In this document: positions 4,031-14,779 of the stretch, piece after piece | Numbering within the stretch: the stretch's first letter is position 1 | Layout of the letters: the number at the start of each line of letters is the position of its first letter | Source of the DNA: a virus | Taxonomy: Duplodnaviria > Caudoviricetes | Strand: one strand, 5' to 3' | Length of the DNA stretch: 32,404 nucleotides | IMG/VR virus record: IMGVR_UViG_3300050147_000051 | Coordinates: 1 to 32,404 of that record | The notes under the pieces: model-generated | What the model was told of the DNA's origin: nothing | The model's database searches: none | Seen by the model: only the letters and a program-made list of their open reading frames with translations | Made by a program: the position numbers and the translations under genes

Positions 4031-4660
4031 TTATTTATTTAAAGTTAGTAAATATGATTTCAAAGCATTATAAACAGCTTCAATTTGTTTGAAATTCTCA
4101 GTGTTTCTTTCTGTTAAAATAACTTCTGTTGATGCAAAAAATAAATCCCAATCTTTAATAGTTTTTTGCTTACATCCAATTTGTATTTTTTCTCCAATAA
4201 TTGAAAAAGACCATTTGCAAAAAATAGGTAAAAAAGCAAATTCTTTATTTAAAGCTGATTCTAAGTTAGCCGAACGCAAGTTAGCTGATTCTAAGTTAGC
4301 TGATTCTAAGTTAGCTGATTCTAAGTTAGCTGATTCTAAGTTAGCTGATTCTAAGTTAGCTGATTCTAAGTTAGCTGATTCTAAGTTAGCCAAACGCAAG
4401 TTAGCCGAACGCAAGTCAGCTGATTCTAAGTTAGCCGAACGCAAGTTAGCTGATTCTAAGTTAGCTGATTCTAAGTCAGCTGATTCTAAGTTAGCCGAAC
4501 GCAAGTCAGCTGATTCTAAGTTAGCCGAACGCAAGTTAGCGTAATTTAAACTTATGTTTTCTTTAATAGCTTTTTCAACAGCATCTTTAATAGTAGCGTT
4601 TTCTTTTTCATAAGTAAATAATACTTTTCCAAATATTGACTTAATTTCAATTTTTACCAT
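4031..4660 (-). CDS. Pentapeptide repeat protein (209 aa)
   Basis: 19 tandem A(N/D)L(E/R)S-type pentapeptides plus a C-terminal IQIGC-containing domain. Confidence 0.93.
   Translation of the reverse strand: MVKIEIKSIFGKVLFTYEKENATIKDAVEKAIKENISLNYANLRSANLESADLRSANLESADLESANLESANLRSANLESADLRSANLRLANLESANLESANLESANLESANLESANLESANLESANLRSANLESALNKEFAFLPIFCKWSFSIIGEKIQIGCKQKTIKDWDLFFASTEVILTERNTENFKQIEAVYNALKSYLLTLNK
4256..4540. repeat. 15-bp tandem repeat (19 units) encoding the pentapeptides
   Basis: Units are TGATTCTAAGTTAGC or CGAACGCAAGT(T/C)AGC variants. Confidence 0.95.
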
Positions 4661-4811: not shown

Positions 4812-5558
4812 TTAATTGTTTTTTATTCTTTCGTTAATAATATCAAAATACTTTTTTTCTTTTTCTATTAAAATATAGTTTCTATTAGTATTTAAACAAG
4901 CTATTGCAGTTGTTCCAGAACCAGCACAATTATCTAAAATAATATCATTTTCATTACTATATGTTTTAATTAAATATTCAAATAAAGCTACTGGTTTTTG
5001 TGTTGGATGCAATCTGTTTAATTGGTTACACTCTGCATTATACTTAGAATAGTTAATAATATTCTTTGGGTATCTTTTTTTATTATCATATCCATCTTTA
5101 CTTTTTGCCACTCCAGATGCAACAGGAGTAGCACTACTTGAACTACTCCCTAAATTTATTGGTCTTATGTTTTTAGTTTGTGCATCTTCCATAATTGGGT
5201 AGTAATTAACCTTTCCTGCACTGCTAAAAACACAAACATCTTCTGTAACTATCATTGGTCTATACTTTGCTAATGCAAATGCTCCTGATAGTTCTTTATT
5301 CCACACCCAAGAGTGTTTGAAGTTTTTAATATTGCTTCCAATTAGCTTAGTAGTAAATGGCTGTGCTGAAAATAAAACTATTGCACCATTCGGCTTTATA
5401 ATTCTATTATACTGCATCCAAAGTTTATCAAAAGGTATTATTTCATCCCAACTACAAGCCGTTGTTCCATAAGGTAAATCGCAAATAATCATATCAATAC
5501 TTTTATCTTCAATTTCTTTCATTAATTCTAAACAATCACCTAATATTACTTTATTCAT
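4812..5558 (-). CDS. DNA methyltransferase, beta class (248 aa)
   Basis: Contains CDLPYG (motif IV variant), HPTQKP and LDNCAGSGTT (motif I). Confidence 0.92.
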   Translation of the reverse strand: MNKVILGDCLELMKEIEDKSIDMIICDLPYGTTACSWDEIIPFDKLWMQYNRIIKPNGAIVLFSAQPFTTKLIGSNIKNFKHSWVWNKELSGAFALAKYRPMIVTEDVCVFSSAGKVNYYPIMEDAQTKNIRPINLGSSSSSATPVASGVAKSKDGYDNKKRYPKNIINYSKYNAECNQLNRLHPTQKPVALFEYLIKTYSNENDIILDNCAGSGTTAIACLNTNRNYILIEKEKKYFDIINERIKNN

Positions 5559-6037
5559 ACCTCCCCACTTTCTTTTTTAACGTATTTTCTGCTCCAAATT
5601 ACAAAGAATATGAATGCAGTAATACAGATTATTAATAATACCCAATTCCAAAAATTACCTTTTGTTGATTCTGTTTGCTTAACTTCAACTGACTTTTTAG
5701 CTTTTACATTTACTTTAACCGCTTTTTGTTCAATTTTAGCAACTTTCTCAACTTTGTTAGTAGTTATATTGTTTTTAACTTTTAGGTGTTTTAAAGTAAC
5801 GTTTTTATAAGTTTTACCATTTACGATAATTTCTTTTGTATTGTCAACTGGAACTATTACTAATTCATCTGTATCGGTGCAATCAATAACTTTAACATTC
5901 GTATCGGTTTTCGTTTCACTTTTACTATTGTCGGTAATTTCGGTCTTTACCTTTTCGGTAGTATCTGATTTGTTTACTTTTCGAGTTCCACAACTAAATA
6001 GTAAAATAGTTGATAATAGGATTAGTTTAGTTTTCAT
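5555..6037 (-). CDS. Lipoprotein with a C-terminal transmembrane helix; putative unimolecular spanin (160 aa)
   Basis: Lipobox LLFSC (Cys16), a Thr/Lys/Val-rich periplasmic region and a C-terminal TM (FWNWVLLIICITAFIFFVIW) followed by basic residues. This matches the topology of T1 gp11-type u-spanins. Confidence 0.7.
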   Translation of the reverse strand: MKTKLILLSTILLFSCGTRKVNKSDTTEKVKTEITDNSKSETKTDTNVKVIDCTDTDELVIVPVDNTKEIIVNGKTYKNVTLKHLKVKNNITTNKVEKVAKIEQKAVKVNVKAKKSVEVKQTESTKGNFWNWVLLIICITAFIFFVIWSRKYVKKESGEV

Positions 6038-6258
6038 TTTGTAATTGTTTTAATTTCAAGTTTTTTTATTTGTTTTTCTAATTGTATATTAGTAGTTAAT
6101 AAAGCAAAACATAACATAATAAATATACCATTTAATATTGTATAATATGCATATTTATGGAAAGTACTTTTTTTATCATTAAGATTATATGCTACTAAGA
6201 AATAAAATAGCAACCAAAAAACTAATAGTGTCATTAAAAAATAATATCTGTTGTCCAT
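6034..6258 (-). CDS. Small membrane protein (74 aa, 2 TM)
   Basis: Two hydrophobic segments; ATGA overlap with the spanin-like gene. Confidence 0.7.
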   Translation of the reverse strand: MDNRYYFLMTLLVFWLLFYFLVAYNLNDKKSTFHKYAYYTILNGIFIMLCFALLTTNIQLEKQIKKLEIKTITK

Positions 6259-6265
6259 AATCTCT

Positions 6266-6325
6266 CTATTTATTTAAGTTATTAAAAATTTCGTTTGCCT
6301 CTTTGCATTTATCTGTTAGTATCAT
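6266..6325 (-). pseudogene. 19-aa mini-ORF (MILTDKCKEANEIFNNLNK), possible internally deleted gene remnant
   Basis: Good start context (TAACTATG) directly after the upstream stop codon; the remnant interpretation is inferred. Confidence 0.35.
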
Positions 6326-6327
6326 AG

Positions 6328-6525
6328 TTATTCAAATATTTCAATCCATTCCCATTTTGTACTTCCATCATTGCATTGCCACATTTGTTGCAACATCAAT
6401 TCTGTTTTTGCTGTGTTCTCATCAATTAGTATATATTTATACGCATATCTAAACTCGTTTGTTTTACACCATTCTTGTGTATAATAAACACTATTAATAG
6501 ACTTTGTAGTTTTTTTTTCTTTCAT
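6328..6525 (-). CDS. Hypothetical protein (65 aa)
   Basis: ORF containing LQQMWQ...EW. Confidence 0.7.
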   Translation of the reverse strand: MKEKKTTKSINSVYYTQEWCKTNEFRYAYKYILIDENTAKTELMLQQMWQCNDGSTKWEWIEIFE

Positions 6526-6674
6526 AAAACTTCTTTTAAAAAATTAGTAATTTGTTTTATTTTTTCTTCTTTAGTTAAGTTTTCGTTTATGTGAAAACTA
6601 TAACTTTTACTTGATTTCTGATAAGGTAAAAATACGATATTTACCTTTGTTGTTGTTTTTATTGGTGGTGACAT
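6522..6674 (-). CDS. Small hypothetical protein (50 aa, MSPPIKTTTKVNIVF...)
   Basis: Translated by hand; ATGA overlap with the next gene. Confidence 0.6.
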   Translation of the reverse strand: MSPPIKTTTKVNIVFLPYQKSSKSYSFHINENLTKEEKIKQITNFLKEVL

Positions 6675-6676
6675 AA

Positions 6677-6913
6677 TTATTCATTATTTTTTACAAATGT
6701 AAATTGATTAATTTTTATAATATTCTTTGAAAACTTCCTGACACCCCTATAGGTCTTACCTAAACTTTTTGCATTTTCAGAAACGCTTTGTAAATTAAGC
6801 AAGTCAAATATATGTATCGCAATTGATACTAAACTGTCGTCATTTAAGTCTTTTATTTTATATTTATCATCGATAAACTTTATAATTTTCTCTGTGTTTT
6901 CAAAGTTTGACAT
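6677..6913 (-). CDS. Small protein with an HTH-like segment (78 aa), next to the cassette array boundary
   Basis: LQSVSENAKSLGKTYRGVRKF resembles an HTH motif. Confidence 0.65.
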   Translation of the reverse strand: MSNFENTEKIIKFIDDKYKIKDLNDDSLVSIAIHIFDLLNLQSVSENAKSLGKTYRGVRKFSKNIIKINQFTFVKNNE

Positions 6914-6961
6914 GATAGTATCTTTTTTGATATTAATGATAGCAAGTAGTTACCTGCAAGG

Positions 6962-7324
6962 CTACCTTGACACTCCGATAACAGCATCGGGATATTCTTT
7001 ACATGCTTCTAAATACTTTTCGACAAAAGGAACAAAATGTTCATACATTCCCCATCCATTAGGTGAATTAAAAGTTTCAAAATGTTCAGGTTTTGCTTTT
7101 AAATCAGCTAATCCTTTTTCAAGTAATTCAACTATTTCACTTGCCTTTGTTTTATCAATTTCTTCTGGTCGCCAAAGTGCTTCGTAAATTCCTGCTTCAC
7201 CTGCCATTTTCCCTAAGTTATGGGTAATGTTTGCATCGTAAACGGTTTCATCTTCTTCTGTTAATGTTTTGCCAGCATCGTAGCTAATCCATTTTTTTCG
7301 TGTTAAATAAACGTCTAAACTCAT
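6962..7324 (-). CDS. Cassette A gene: hypothetical phage-type protein (120 aa)
   Basis: MSLDVYL...ANITHNL...LWRPEE...PNGWG; lies entirely inside cassette 6950-7491. Confidence 0.85.
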   Translation of the reverse strand: MSLDVYLTRKKWISYDAGKTLTEEDETVYDANITHNLGKMAGEAGIYEALWRPEEIDKTKASEIVELLEKGLADLKAKPEHFETFNSPNGWGMYEHFVPFVEKYLEACKEYPDAVIGVSR

Positions 7325-7364
7325 TTTGTTTCTTTTTTAAAATACTACTGATAATCCGCCCAGC

Positions 7365-7497
7365 AGGTAACAGCGGTTTGTAGCAAAAAGGGCTGATGTG
7401 CTACATTCATCATTTGTGGTTCTAATCGGCAGTAGTGGTAAATTAAAACATCGTGCTTCTAAATCCCTTTCAGCTACAAGCCGAAATACGGTTATGC
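7365..7497 (+). other. attC-like recombination site 1 (133 bp)
   Basis: AGGTAAC ... CGGTTTGTAGC-AAAAAGGG ... CCCTTT-CA-GCTACAAGCCG ... GTTATGC forms an imperfect inverted repeat with AAC/GTT cores. Confidence 0.8.
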
Positions 7498-7893
7498 AAC
7501 AGTTAATTCACGACCTATTAAAGAATAAAATAAGTTCTGAAGCTGATGTACATATTTTAAATAAACGTGTCCATATTTATATTCAACAGTATATCCATTT
7601 TCTTTTCTATATTTTATTGAGAAAGAACACCCTTCTTTTTTATATTTATCAGGAATATTAAATTCACATTTATTAAAACCTAATTTTAAAAGCCATTCTT
7701 CTGTTAATGGAATTGGTATTGAACATTTTAAATTTAATTCTAACAATGTAAAAAAAGCATCATCTACTTGAAATATTTCATCTGATCCTATTTCTTGTAA
7801 ATAAATACCGAAACGCAATTCATTTGGTAAAATAACCGATTGCATAACAGCCGTTTGTATTAATTGCGGGGCTTGGGATTTATCTAAAAACAT
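7492..7893 (-). CDS. Cassette B gene: hypothetical protein (133 aa; alternative ATG at 7845)
   Basis: NELRFG...PIPLTEEWLLKLGF...YVHQLQNLFYSLIGREL; the stop codon overlaps the GTTA core and the first ATG lies inside attC 2. Confidence 0.85.
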   Translation of the reverse strand: MFLDKSQAPQLIQTAVMQSVILPNELRFGIYLQEIGSDEIFQVDDAFFTLLELNLKCSIPIPLTEEWLLKLGFNKCEFNIPDKYKKEGCSFSIKYRKENGYTVEYKYGHVYLKYVHQLQNLFYSLIGRELTVA

Positions 7894-7979
7894 AATTTTT
7901 AAATTTAAAAGTTAGTATATATTTGTATGTTCAGTTTTCAATCATCCGCAACTGAACACAAGCGGGCAAAACGTTATAA
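7842..7979 (+). other. attC-like recombination site 2 (138 bp)
   Basis: GCATAAC-AG-CCGTTTGTATTAATTGCGG ... CCGCAACTGAACACAAGCGG-GCAAAAC-GTTATAA. Confidence 0.8.
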
Positions 7980-7985
7980 GCCATT

Positions 7986-8222
7986 TTACAGAAAGAACTC
8001 GCTAAATTCAACTGTTCTTATTTTATCTTGTCTTTGATTTTCTGCGCAACCAACAGACCCAGTACTTCTACTTACTTTCTTTTTTGCCCATAAAACTAAT
8101 GCAGTTTCACGTTCAGCCATTTGAGGAACCCATTTTACATAGCAATATTGTTCTCCAATAAATTTTGAAGCTTTTTCAAATTGTTCTTCGTTTCTAATAA
8201 TAATTGATAATCCGTTTTTCAT
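7986..8222 (-). CDS. Cassette C gene 2: hypothetical protein (78 aa)
   Basis: ORF inside cassette 7974-8562. Confidence 0.75.
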   Translation of the reverse strand: MKNGLSIIIRNEEQFEKASKFIGEQYCYVKWVPQMAERETALVLWAKKKVSRSTGSVGCAENQRQDKIRTVEFSEFFL

Positions 8223-8223
8223 A

Positions 8224-8424
8224 TTAATTAATTTTATAATGTTTAATTTCTGCGGTTTCTACATCTAAAAAATGATAGTATTCAGGGTCTTTTTTTGATG
8301 CATCTAAATGATTTTGTAAATCTCTTTTTGCTGATTCTAAATAATCTTTGTGAATATAATTTTTGAACATTTCGCATCCTGTTTTATCAGTTATGCAAAC
8401 TACTATTGTGTTTTCTAAATCCAT
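8224..8424 (-). CDS. Cassette C gene 1: hypothetical protein (66 aa)
   Basis: ORF starts just past attC 3 and is coupled to the next ORF. Confidence 0.75.
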   Translation of the reverse strand: MDLENTIVVCITDKTGCEMFKNYIHKDYLESAKRDLQNHLDASKKDPEYYHFLDVETAEIKHYKIN

Positions 8425-8435
8425 AAAAAAACGGC

Positions 8436-8568
8436 TTATAACATCGGTTTTGCTCTATTGCGGGTTCGGGCATAATTAGATGTTCGGTTTGTATTTGTTA
8501 TTTTTGTTTTTAAATCTAAACTTTTGGCTTACTTTTCCGCAACAAAGCAAAGCCGAGAACCGTTAATG
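8436..8568 (+). other. attC-like recombination site 3 (133 bp)
   Basis: TTATAAC-AT-CGGTTTTGCTCTATTGCGG ... CCGCAACAAAGCAAAGCCG-AGAACC-GTTAATG. Confidence 0.8.
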
Positions 8569-9027
8569 GCAATATTTGAAGTGCGTAAAATGAATAATTG
8601 CCATAGGTTGAGATAAATCGTAACCTTTAAACCATTCTTTAAAATCCGAAAGACTTAATCCATCATTTTCGGCTATAATATCAATGTTTGGCTCAAACTT
8701 ATTATTTATCAAAGGATATTTTAAATTAGTAACTCCGTCTTTATCTTTGTAAAACTCTAATTTTTCAAGTGAAATTCCATCTGTATTTTTAAGATTAAAA
8801 ACTTCTAGTTGTTTTGAAATATATGGCTTACCGGTCCAATTTCTAATAGATAAACAAGCTTCTCCTTTTTCAATTTTTTCAAATCTTTTTTGCCATAATA
8901 AAAAATTACCTCTAATTGTATGCTTTTTCAATAAGCTATTAATTTTCACAACAAAATTTGTTTCTAAACCACCTTTTTTGTGAGTTTTTGGGAATGTGTT
9001 TGAAATTATTAAAACGTATATTTTCAT
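8563..9027 (-). CDS. Cassette D gene: ASCH/PUA-like protein (154 aa)
   Basis: KKHTIR near the N-terminus and IAENDGLSLSDFKEWF near the C-terminus resemble ASCH-related phage proteins; the stop codon overlaps the GTTA core. Confidence 0.6.
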   Translation of the reverse strand: MKIYVLIISNTFPKTHKKGGLETNFVVKINSLLKKHTIRGNFLLWQKRFEKIEKGEACLSIRNWTGKPYISKQLEVFNLKNTDGISLEKLEFYKDKDGVTNLKYPLINNKFEPNIDIIAENDGLSLSDFKEWFKGYDLSQPMAIIHFTHFKYCH

Positions 9028-9092
9028 AATAAATTTTTTTAATACCGCATGCTACTGTAACAATACGCAAATTATTAAGTAAAAATCTGGTA

Positions 9093-9100
9093 CAAATATA
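9093..9100 (-). promoter_or_regulatory. TAnnTTTG promoter facing the cassette array
   Basis: TATATTTG lies between the endolysin terminator and cassette D. Confidence 0.6.
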
Positions 9101-9151
9101 ACATTAATTCTAATACTAATATCAGTATCAATGTAGTTTATAATTAGTCTA

Positions 9152-9183
9152 AATAAAGAAACCTATCAAATTAATGATAGGTT
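9152..9183 (-). terminator. Terminator-like hairpin after the endolysin
   Basis: Minus strand reads AACCTATCA-TTAATT-TGATAGGTT followed by TCTTTATT. Confidence 0.65.
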
Positions 9184-9231
9184 ATAATAAAAGACTTTAA
9201 GTCAGTTCTTAAGGAATTATCTAAAAGTACG

Positions 9232-9696
9232 TTACTCCTTAATCTCAAAATGCATCCAATCATAATTCTTTTCACGTCCTAAACTAATAAATCCGTGTTT
9301 GTAGAAAATATCAATCATTTGTTTATATTCAGCACGTGCAAATCTTGCAGTTTTTGAAGTTTCTTTTAATTGATTTCTTTCAGGGTCAATGTCAATAGCT
9401 ATTCCCCAACTATGACGTGAATATTCTGAACCCCCACGCATAGCACGAAAATTAAAGCAACCACCAAATAAATCAATTCCTAACTCAACAATTTTTTCGT
9501 AACCATAAACCTCTAATAACTCGGTAAATATTTTACCTAATTTGTCAGCTACTAATTTATGACATTGGATTTTATTTACTTTTACATTTTTATCCCAACT
9601 TAAACGCATTGGATAAGGTAGATTTAAAGTAGTTAAGTAGTTTGGATTCTTACTCGGAACACCATATTTTTGAGTAGCTTGTGTAGTTGTTATCAT
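9232..9696 (-). CDS. Endolysin, M15 family zinc peptidase (154 aa)
   Basis: Zinc-ligand motifs [12 protein letters not shown] (SxHxxGxAxD) and DWMHFE. Confidence 0.9.
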
Positions 9697-9860
9697 AACA
9701 ATTCTAAAGTTTGGTTAAATAAATAAACATTTGTTCTTTTGTCTCCAAATATTTTGCTTTTTTCTGTAAATGTTTTTGGGTTTAAATTATGTATAAATAA
9801 CTCAGGAATTCCAATAACATTTACACCTATCCAAAAATATACTCTAATTAGTTTTTTCAT
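9693..9860 (-). CDS. Small hypothetical protein in the lysis module (55 aa)
   Basis: Translated by hand ([22 protein letters not shown]...); ATGA overlap with the endolysin. Confidence 0.55.
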
Positions 9861-13187: not shown

Positions 13188-13661
13188 TTAATACCATTGA
13201 ATTAAGTTAGTTGTTTCTTTTTTTTCTTGCTTATTATACTCAGGAATATCAATTGTTTTCATAAATTCATAGAAATTAGTTTCGTAACTTATCGCTATAC
13301 TTTCATGATTTTTACCTAAAGTATTAATCTCGCTTGGTGTTGGCTGTGTTCCGTTTTCAATATTCATTTTAAACGTTCCAGCATTGCTTATTTTAGCGTT
13401 GTTCAAAGATAAGTAAATTGAAACAGAAAAAAAAGAAAGCATAAACGAAATATAATCGTTGTAGATTGTTAAATAATTACCAACTAAGTCATTATTTTTA
13501 TAATCAGTTAGTATTTTATTATACAAATCTAATCCTAAAATTCTTTTTATATGTGTTGATTGCGCAATATTAATAGATGGATTAAGGCTGTCAGTATCAA
13601 TATTACCGCCTATTCCTGTTAATTGTACAATATCGTTTGCTTTTACTAATAGTGTTATCAT
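13188..13661 (-). CDS. Putative head-tail adaptor (157 aa)
   Basis: Follows the portal-like gene and is predicted to be helical; call is from synteny. Confidence 0.5.
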   Translation of the reverse strand: MITLLVKANDIVQLTGIGGNIDTDSLNPSINIAQSTHIKRILGLDLYNKILTDYKNNDLVGNYLTIYNDYISFMLSFFSVSIYLSLNNAKISNAGTFKMNIENGTQPTPSEINTLGKNHESIAISYETNFYEFMKTIDIPEYNKQEKKETTNLIQWY

Positions 13662-13663
13662 AG

Positions 13664-14779
13664 TTATTGATTTGTTTCTATTTTTTCCTCTTCAAAATTC
13701 TTAAAATCTAAATTATAATTACCATCAATTACTTTAAAGACTTTCATTAATCCGTCTAAAATAACCTCACGCATCGGGTTAATATTTCTTCTATACAATT
13801 GTTTAGTAGATATCGCAATTTCATCTGCATTGTTTGAGAATCCGTTAGAGTTTCCACTTCCAGCAAATAAGATAGGCGGCGCACTATGACCAACTATAAT
13901 TTTTCTTTCGGCTTCTTCGCTATAAAATACATTTTGTTGGTTTAATTCAGGCGGGTGCAATTGGTCAACTACCAAACTCTCTTCAGCACCCTCGTTAAAA
14001 GATATTAATACAGCACTTTGGTTTTCAGTCCCTACTGCTTTTTCACGTACTTTTTTAGCTTGTTCTTTTGCGACTTCTTCGTCTGTAATTCTACCATTAT
14101 TATAATTAATAATGGTCATAGCACTCATTGAGTTATAGAAGTGTTTTATACCAGCGTTTGAAAGTTCGCCCTCTACTTTACACCAACGAATACAACTGAA
14201 ATAATCGGGTATAGGGAAGAATGGCTCACTCGTTGGATTGCGAATTAATAACGCTTCAACATCTTGTCCATCTTTGTAAACTCCTGTAAAAATAGGAATA
14301 AACTCTCTTTTATAACGTCCGTAATTAGTCCAATCCCAACTATACCAATATCCATCAACTTTTAAATTATCGGTTACATTAATACCAAGTTTATAAACTG
14401 GCAAATATTCAATTTTTAATATTTTCTTTTCGTGCCAAATAATCTGTATTGAATATCCTCCGAATAGCTTATGATCCTTACATATTAGTTTAGCGTCTTC
14501 TTTACTTAAGATATGAGAAACTTTTAAACCTCCTTTATCAATTAAACCCTCGCCATAAATAAAGTTAACCATTGCGTTAATAATTGACGCGTTGGTTGGG
14601 CTATCGTCGTAAGCATCTTGGTAGCTTTTATAGTTCTTATTATTAACTCCGTTAGTAATCCATTTGCGCCCCATTACTGGCTTAATATCAATAGGCTCGA
14701 ACTTACTAAACTTCATAGTGCTTTCAAACACTTGAGGCGAACTATTCATATTGGAATTTTGAGTTTGATTGACTTCCAT
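13664..14779 (-). CDS. Portal protein (371 aa)
   Basis: SPTNASIIN...IYGEG, FPIPDY and IIVGHSAPPILF...INPMR match HK97-type portal patterns. Confidence 0.8.
   Translation of the reverse strand: MEVNQTQNSNMNSSPQVFESTMKFSKFEPIDIKPVMGRKWITNGVNNKNYKSYQDAYDDSPTNASIINAMVNFIYGEGLIDKGGLKVSHILSKEDAKLICKDHKLFGGYSIQIIWHEKKILKIEYLPVYKLGINVTDNLKVDGYWYSWDWTNYGRYKREFIPIFTGVYKDGQDVEALLIRNPTSEPFFPIPDYFSCIRWCKVEGELSNAGIKHFYNSMSAMTIINYNNGRITDEEVAKEQAKKVREKAVGTENQSAVLISFNEGAEESLVVDQLHPPELNQQNVFYSEEAERKIIVGHSAPPILFAGSGNSNGFSNNADEIAISTKQLYRRNINPMREVILDGLMKVFKVIDGNYNLDFKNFEEEKIETNQ

Follow-up and report, generated by a model that had tools for sequence, protein, structure and literature searches.

The closest described systems to the locus analysed here are the integrons, sedentary chromosomal ones above all, in which the integrase IntI acts with the sites attI and attC, the latter ranging from 57 to 141 bp (PMC5027507; PMC4889954). 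Tyrosine recombinases without the IntI-specific insertion are treated as non-integron enzymes (PMC4889954), and surveys report very few integrons in Bacteroidetes (PMC9024848). In virulent phages, a Polaribacter phage among them, Qi et al. (2023) described integrase-free cassette arrays, i.e. clusters of attC sites lacking an integron integrase (CALINs), which were detected by canonical attC models and of which five of six were recombined by IntI1 (PMC9892861); in addition, an integrase supplied in trans can insert cassettes at GWT sites, called attG, in any DNA (Loot et al., 10.1101/2022.09.11.507474). Here, we analysed the phage record IMGVR_UViG_3300050147_000051 (positions 1 to 32,404, 32,404 nucleotides; hereafter the window), in which an initial annotation had proposed an integron-like cassette array without an integrase at 6949..9061. 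We consider it probable that this is a four-cassette integron-like array of a Bacteroidota type, with cassette junctions at G/TT, which is likely rearranged by an IntI/Xer-like recombinase from the host or from a co-infecting phage. A targeted literature search, with most subscription journals uncovered, found no published description of this family of sites and recombinases. The array consists of the following elements:

6935..6952, + strand: left array junction; crossover G/TT at 6949/6950; occupies the attI-like position of complete systems
6950..7491, + strand: cassette 1, 542 bp; gene, leader and site A; ends GTTACCTGC / GCAGGTAAC
7368-7494, + strand: site A, hairpin of the Bacteroidota family; covariance model score 77.4 bits; 85-93% identical copies beside other genes
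7492..7973, + strand: cassette 2, 482 bp; gene and site B; ends GTTATGCAA / TTGCATAAC
7845-7976, + strand: site B, layout match; covariance model score 76.5 bits
7974..8562, + strand: cassette 3, 589 bp; two genes and site C; ends GTTATAAGCC / GGCTTATAAC
8439-8565, + strand: site C; covariance model score 101.5 bits; 87-92% identical copies in other phages
8563..9061, + strand: cassette 4; right end damaged, hairpin site missing

The layout that the initial annotation had read from three palindromes, TAAC-nn-C(G/C)GTTT...AAGC(C/G)G-n6-7-GTTA, matches three times in the window and not once in 100 shuffles. All six core motifs of 9-10 nt that it had placed at 6949/7363, 7491/7840 and 7973/8433 are present, as is GCTACTGTAAC at 9051, while GTTATGCAA has one further copy at 8390; the G-to-G distances agree with the proposed cassettes of 542, 482 and 589 bp. 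With 127-132 bp the hairpin sites also have lengths inside the attC range, as had been suggested. The covariance model was trained on 40 other sites, from which the nearest homologues of the window sites were excluded; its next-best match scores 12.9 bits, and it finds no fourth site or remnant at 9058-9190, near 9058 or left of 6949. In the model alignment sites A and C are free of bulges and site B has one extra base. An Rfam scan returned no family at the sites, and an exact-repeat search fails to detect them. In their array form the hairpins fold modestly (z -0.4 to -1.8), which alone is non-significant.

The three sites are members of a large family. An estimated 360 viral and 1600 genome stretches match the layout pattern; most genomes among the matches listed are Bacteroidota, co-oriented arrays reach at least 17 sites, and many loci hold one site only. 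In 40 aligned sites, arm positions pair in 87.3% of the cells (71.3% after shuffling) and compensatory changes are present in 11 of 16 arm pairs, a test that leans in favour of the hairpin because we set the structure from the same sequences and chose the sites by pattern. It had been noted that the core of each site matches the other end of the same cassette and not its own hairpin, and 100 other segments agree with this. We compared the two ends of distinct segments that separate one detected site from the next and measure 120-1600 nt, anything longer being excluded. At the four bases that follow GTTA, the match to the opposite end is 3.27 of 4 in 37 viral segments and 3.43 of 4 in 63 chromosomal ones, compared with permutation means of 1.55 and 1.62 (maxima in 2000 permutations: 2.22 and 2.08) and with 1.5 for the own hairpin; position 11 never matches. 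Within the window, three of the four cassettes have complementary ends, and the fourth has them in its homologue in the related record L402. With their ends joined, cassettes 1-3 gain 6-9 kcal/mol of folding stability; joining also improves the fold of the top strand in 84 of the 100 other segments. By this folding proxy the top strand is the more stable one in just 7/63 and 3/37 family cases. The longest open reading frame (ORF) runs opposite to the site reading in 35 of the 37 viral segments, but along it in 59 of the 63 chromosomal ones. The cultured Flavobacterium phage 2A (KU599887; L583, 5001-7509) has five family sites with mostly inverted genes, unannotated as such, and in one chromosomal array (L237) two related transposase-like genes at 5897-6898 and 13501-14493 interrupt the series, as judged by eye.

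Breakpoints in relatives fall at the same G/TT junctions. We compared the 19 closest homologues of cassette 1 (79-96% protein identity), leaving out an identical record, which stands behind L351, L403, L420, L500 and L582, as non-independent. Homology starts exactly at 6949 in 12 of the 19; three have the same GTTA core plus a few chance extra bases, and four lack the core. The 15 core-bearing homologues adjoin 12 distinct left neighbours, and several of them sit at a GTT without a hairpin on the left. At the other end of the array, the homologue of cassette 4 in L402 is 92.6% identical from 8561 onwards, follows a different left site, and has an intact site of its own and a matching right core with the end GCCATTAAC. 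This comparison therefore fixes the polarity chosen in the initial annotation and identifies cassette 4 of the window as damaged, in line with the degenerate right end described there; together with the end matching and the breakpoints in relatives, it bounds the cassettes at G/TT in this polarity. For the copies of site C in other phages, homology stops at or near GTTA. We rejected the opposite polarity, in which a hairpin would go with the gene whose transcription runs into it, on two grounds: homology between sites stops at the GTTA on the right, and the left site of the cassette 4 homologue is a different one. Five close relatives have the same endolysin flank, of which L131, L132 and L134 carry other arrays and L130 and L133 none; L131 and L134 have both outer flanks in common. 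The array of L134 comprises five cassettes, two of which resemble DNA methyltransferase genes (judged by eye). In cassette 1 we also observed an exchange of variable cores between the ends: some copies combine the window front core with another back core, and others do the reverse (L354, L361 versus L358, L359).

Natural strains appear to differ at these junctions, too. Seven metagenome runs were compared as contigs, two further runs with partial cover (X11, X12) being excluded; no RNA data set was listed among those that contain this DNA. In two of the seven (X4, X6) a contig joins 6948 to 8562 and thereby skips 1613 bp, i.e. 542+482+589 bp or exactly cassettes 1-3. In X4 the depth of this joint is 18.5 versus 18.9 for the full path, the adjoining contigs break off at 6952 and resume at 8562, and a loose end at 9045 equals an intact cassette 4 end; in X6 the depth of the joint is 2.1. 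The joint survives at 95% likeness. Gain and loss are indistinguishable in this strain difference.

In fetched genome and phage loci, tyrosine recombinases adjoin the sites. The complete layout is found in phage L139, whose endolysin is 81% identical to that of the window: a recombinase and an attI-like site stand at the left end of the array, followed by cassettes and endolysin. We found 80 viral relatives of the L139 enzyme and analysed 77, of which 56 have at least 900 nt of upstream sequence. In 49 of these 56 loci sites lie upstream of, and divergent from, the 268-aa recombinase (upstream on the same strand, 1; downstream, 1). An attI-like site lies about 55 nt before the start codon in 61 of 70 viral loci, and in these 61 loci it is followed by 51 different first-cassette fronts. 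On chromosomes the recombinase gene points the same way as the array; an attI-like site lies shortly after the stop codon in 24/33 loci, and a hairpin site within 1.5 kb in 13/26 loci with enough sequence. Among 61 sampled genomes of the genus Flavobacterium, 37 have the enzyme and 36 the site pattern; sites occur in 28 of the 37 genomes with the recombinase compared with 8 of the 24 without it (Fisher p 0.0014, kinship ignored), and a control with the reversed pattern gave seven single matches. All nine linked enzymes scored against TIGR02249 reach 141-217, below the cut-off of 265, each in two stretches, and in the region of the IntI insertion, between aligned blocks, the L139 protein has 33 residues versus 80 in VchIntIA. 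NF040815 is the best profile of most linked enzymes, and 4a8e and 5hxy are the best structure matches. The linked gene is separate from the Xer-like matches (1e-47 to 1e-50) in the same genomes, and its distribution is patchy (37/61). The recombinase also has 580-aa forms, noticed in L247 (1016-2758) and L285 (1331-3073), whose N-terminal extension of about 300 residues has no Pfam match.

The window itself encodes no such enzyme, as the initial annotation had stated: searches of the record with PF00589 and with a profile of the linked enzyme found no tyrosine recombinase, a PF00239 search found no resolvase, and Pfam scans of 53 queries spanning its main ORFs found no recombinase. It is also missing from other records with an array, namely L134, L402 and L364 (97-100% complete) and L131 (estimated 51% complete). 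On two attI-like matrices the left junction of the window obtains -6.8 (rank 38 of 357) and -1.3 (rank 30 of 617), and it is a degenerate attI-like site at most. The corresponding junctions of L131 and L134 score 10.8 on the chromosomal attI matrix (training range 7.7-13.2), and -3.9 and -7.2 on the viral one. Compared with L131 and L134, positions 6935-6949 of the window resemble the attI-like site of L131 minus 7 nt next to the crossover.

The 32.4-kb record encodes terminase, portal, helicase, primase and endolysin (Pfam/PHROG scans); its ends form a 130-bp terminal direct repeat, and it is classified as linear and 95% complete. The host is probably a Flavobacterium, because 156 of 163 phage records matching window positions 6500-9700 are Flavobacterium phages, mostly matched via the endolysin. 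Outside the array we noted a pentapeptide-repeat protein with a 15-bp tandem repeat (4031-4660) and two orphan N6/N4 DNA methyltransferases (1575-2225, 4812-5558). The genes and flanks of the array are:

6677..6913, - strand: 78-aa ORF at the recombinase-gene position of complete phage systems
6962..7324, - strand: cassette 1 gene; 120-aa phage protein, function unassigned; phrog_4019; 6110 homologues
7492..7845, - strand: cassette 2 gene; probably 117 aa, ORF 7492-7893 with internal ATG at 7845; phrog_10066
7986-8222 and 8224-8424, both - strand: cassette 3 genes; phrog_37600 and no family, respectively
8563-9027, - strand: cassette 4 gene; 154 aa; phrog_8581
9093..9100, - strand: putative -7 promoter element of Bacteroidota type (TAnnTTTG), directed towards the cassette genes
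9160..9183, - strand: terminator-like hairpin, closing the upstream lysis genes
9232..9696, - strand: endolysin, M15 peptidase; PF13539, phrog_17001; conserved right flank

All five cassette genes are thus on the minus strand, opposite to the TAAC...GTTA reading, a point that the initial annotation does not mention, and the cassette 2 gene, as read from the sequence, has its likely ATG inside one core and its TAA stop inside the other. The cargo genes gave no Pfam or PADLOC match and no function could be assigned; Atlas leads, as candidates only, are DUF7739 for gene 1 (0.93, 41% of members) and ASCH for gene 4 (0.86). The 78-aa ORF has no Pfam, PHROG or recombinase-profile match, its sole viral match being one identical record. 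TAnnTTTG, the -7 promoter motif of Bacteroidota, is not enriched (8 versus 6.4 expected), but the element at 9093..9100 is kept at this position in 5/5 close relatives; it is a candidate promoter. The sigma-70 scan is ill-suited to promoters of Bacteroidota.

Following integron biochemistry (PMC5027507), a cassette would be excised as a circle in which its two ends meet and complete the hairpin. The folded strand, probably the bottom one, would then recombine, in the manner of integrons, with a double-stranded attI-like site or a second hairpin site. As cassette genes here are inverted compared with chromosomal ones, each would be preceded by its hairpin, and a phage promoter at the array's far end would drive every cassette gene. 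Incoming cassettes would be added on the left, at the greatest distance from the candidate promoter (9093-9100), i.e. in the reverse of the integron expression gradient. Cassette 4, whose site is lost, is predicted to be locked and cassettes 1-3 to be still mobile. Supply of the recombinase in trans is plausible, because the enzyme is absent here and in L134, L402 and L364, yet frequent in the likely hosts. More tentatively, we propose a second integron family of Bacteroidota and their phages, in which a recombinase without the insertion regarded as essential for recombining folded attC sites would instead read conserved hairpin mismatches and which integrase-less phages may run parasitically with inverted cassettes, a promoter of their own and the enzyme of the host. 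Addition and removal of accessory genes by the host enzyme during infection is suggested by the difference of exactly three cassettes between co-occurring strains.

Several observations weigh against this interpretation. The link between sites and enzyme is one of position only; the first cassette matches the first detected site in just 27 of 46 loci, which missed sites may partly explain, and the eight recombinase-free genomes mentioned above still carry sites. The flank at 6949 scores below the training range of the chromosomal attI-like sites, a poor attI match, and in two of the three window cassettes tested by the folding proxy the top strand is the more stable. In the metagenome data, the bridging contig is 56 nt long with 26 letters on its short side, under the bridging standard of 31 letters, and X4 and X6 are both 2025 leaf-litter data and may be one campaign. 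No circle was seen, and no circle-marking backward joint occurs in the seven runs, which is uninformative as contigs drop rare forms. Homology of cassette 1 stops inside the left arm, at 7377-7389, in 14 of 15 homologues and never at 7491; past this point the homologues carry different hairpins of 87-127 nt, while the gene is kept. Likewise, site A and its leader recur before unrelated genes. Because cassette 1 homology ends inside the arm and the leader precedes unrelated genes, a second process also reassorts genes and hairpins. The proposal that relatives vary exactly at the G/TT junctions thus holds for gain and loss of whole cassettes, but not for this second breakpoint, at which cassette 1 homologues have other hairpin interiors. 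As a separate observation, positions 7321-7379, a 45-nt leader plus left arm, are nearly unchanged before at least seven unrelated genes (L010, L028, L083, L089, L091, L092 and L095), the sequence changing over at the start codon; the recurring unit is a possible trace of how cassettes are made.

Among the alternatives, the one that survives best, although we regard it as unlikely, is that the array is a relic, built by this same site-specific system while an ancestor had its own recombinase at the left end, and that its only changes now are deletions and homologous exchange with phages related to it. Related phages do carry their own copy of the recombinase, so loss of the phage's own gene is a live alternative: L139 has enzyme and attI-like site at the left end of its array. 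Moreover, the site of cassette 4 has been lost, stems and genes are mixed among homologues, and the relic keeps its standing because the left junction of the window is not a good attI-like site. However, a co-occurring strain with the same left flank differs by exactly three cassettes at G/TT, and the two junctions share just GTTA, presumably too little for homologous recombination. Also, the attI-like sites of L131 and L134 still score well (10.8), with different arrays and no recombinase in either record, that of L131 being estimated as 51% complete.

Considerably less probable are expression modules, i.e. leaders, promoters or terminators swapped by homologous recombination without a dedicated recombinase, which may be likened to the promoter stem-loop cassettes of T4-type phages. 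The common leader and left arm before at least seven unrelated genes, the breaks of cassette 1 homologues inside the common arm, and the fact that phage mRNA would carry the more stable hairpin strand all match such modules, but they leave unexplained the covarying segment ends, the exact G/TT breakpoints against unrelated DNA, and the presence of the recombinase beside an attI-like site. Mobile repeats of the MITE or REP kind, inserted singly between genes, are largely refuted: near-identical sites beside different genes and the many single-site loci would suit them, but the site flanks match the far end of the neighbouring segment and not each other, and thus there is no target duplication; furthermore, sites are co-oriented in arrays that reach at least 17 sites, and relatives lack gene and site together. 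We give hardly any credence to a conventional CALIN, in which a host IntI would recombine canonical attC sites. It would share core triplet, size range and bottom-strand bias and has precedent in phage CALINs recombined by IntI1 (PMC9892861), but is contradicted by a core consensus fitting about 5% of the family sites, a central spacer of 2 x 4-7 nt, and linked enzymes that are all (9/9) under the TIGR02249 cut-off and lack the insertion.

If the integron-like reading is correct, the integron gap in Bacteroidetes would be closed by a cassette system that occurs in hundreds of viral contigs and in over half of the sampled genomes of the genus Flavobacterium, and phages would have a site-specific route for the turnover of accessory genes. 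The system would also allow a direct test of whether recombination at hairpin sites needs the IntI insertion, to which the window adds near-identical natural strains apparently differing by an exact cassette block.

Among known systems, integrons share several features with this one: the crossover lies at a GTT/AAC triplet (breakpoints 6949 and 8561-8562), cassette ends are complementary as a circular intermediate predicts, hairpin sites of attC length are kept by covariation, the bottom strand usually has the more stable fold in the site family, and in other genomes a tyrosine recombinase adjoins a primary site, after which comes a first cassette that varies. The chromosomal recombinase, co-oriented with its array, resembles the inverted-integrase integron group. 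The array of the window also resembles the phage CALINs of Qi et al. in having cassettes without an integrase; however, the forward cloning oligonucleotides of two Polaribacter sites (61 and 75 nt) do not have the layout of this family, and the terms Flavobacter, Bacteroid and crAss do not occur in the main text of that paper (PMC9892861). Several cassette 1 homologues, at a GTT without a hairpin to the left, recall attG insertion, which is known for canonical integron integrases. By best profile and structure matches, the linked enzymes are like the simple tyrosine recombinases XerA, XerC and XerD, but unlike Xer the linked gene is additional to the Xer-like genes of the genome, patchy, and heads cassette arrays. 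In contrast to MITEs or solo repeats, flanks of the own hairpin match at chance level and empty alleles lack whole cassettes. Unlike in a complete integron, there is no integrase gene in cis in the window, and the 6949 flank is a poor attI match. The core reads GTTA-N6 instead of GTTRRRY: among 368 family sites RYYYAAC fits 21 and GTTRRRY 20 (about 5%), and among the three window sites, read from the sequence, neither fits any, so that the identity with canonical, IntI-type attC sites suggested at first does not hold. Where attC arms have 5-6 unpaired nt each, the central spacer here is asymmetric, with 2 nt in the left arm (fixed by our anchoring) and 4-8 nt, mostly 6, in the right. An A/C mismatch is conserved (98 of 107 sites), and the standard extrahelical bases, two or three near the L box of attC, were not seen in the ungapped sites, the finder accepting ungapped arms only. 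The phage cassette genes are inverted, so that the attC-type site is not downstream of a co-oriented gene, and the insertion near patch III that is specific to IntI is missing from the linked recombinase. Because the core consensus, the central spacer and the IntI insertion all depart from the canonical pattern, this array, which works like an integron, is not a canonical one.

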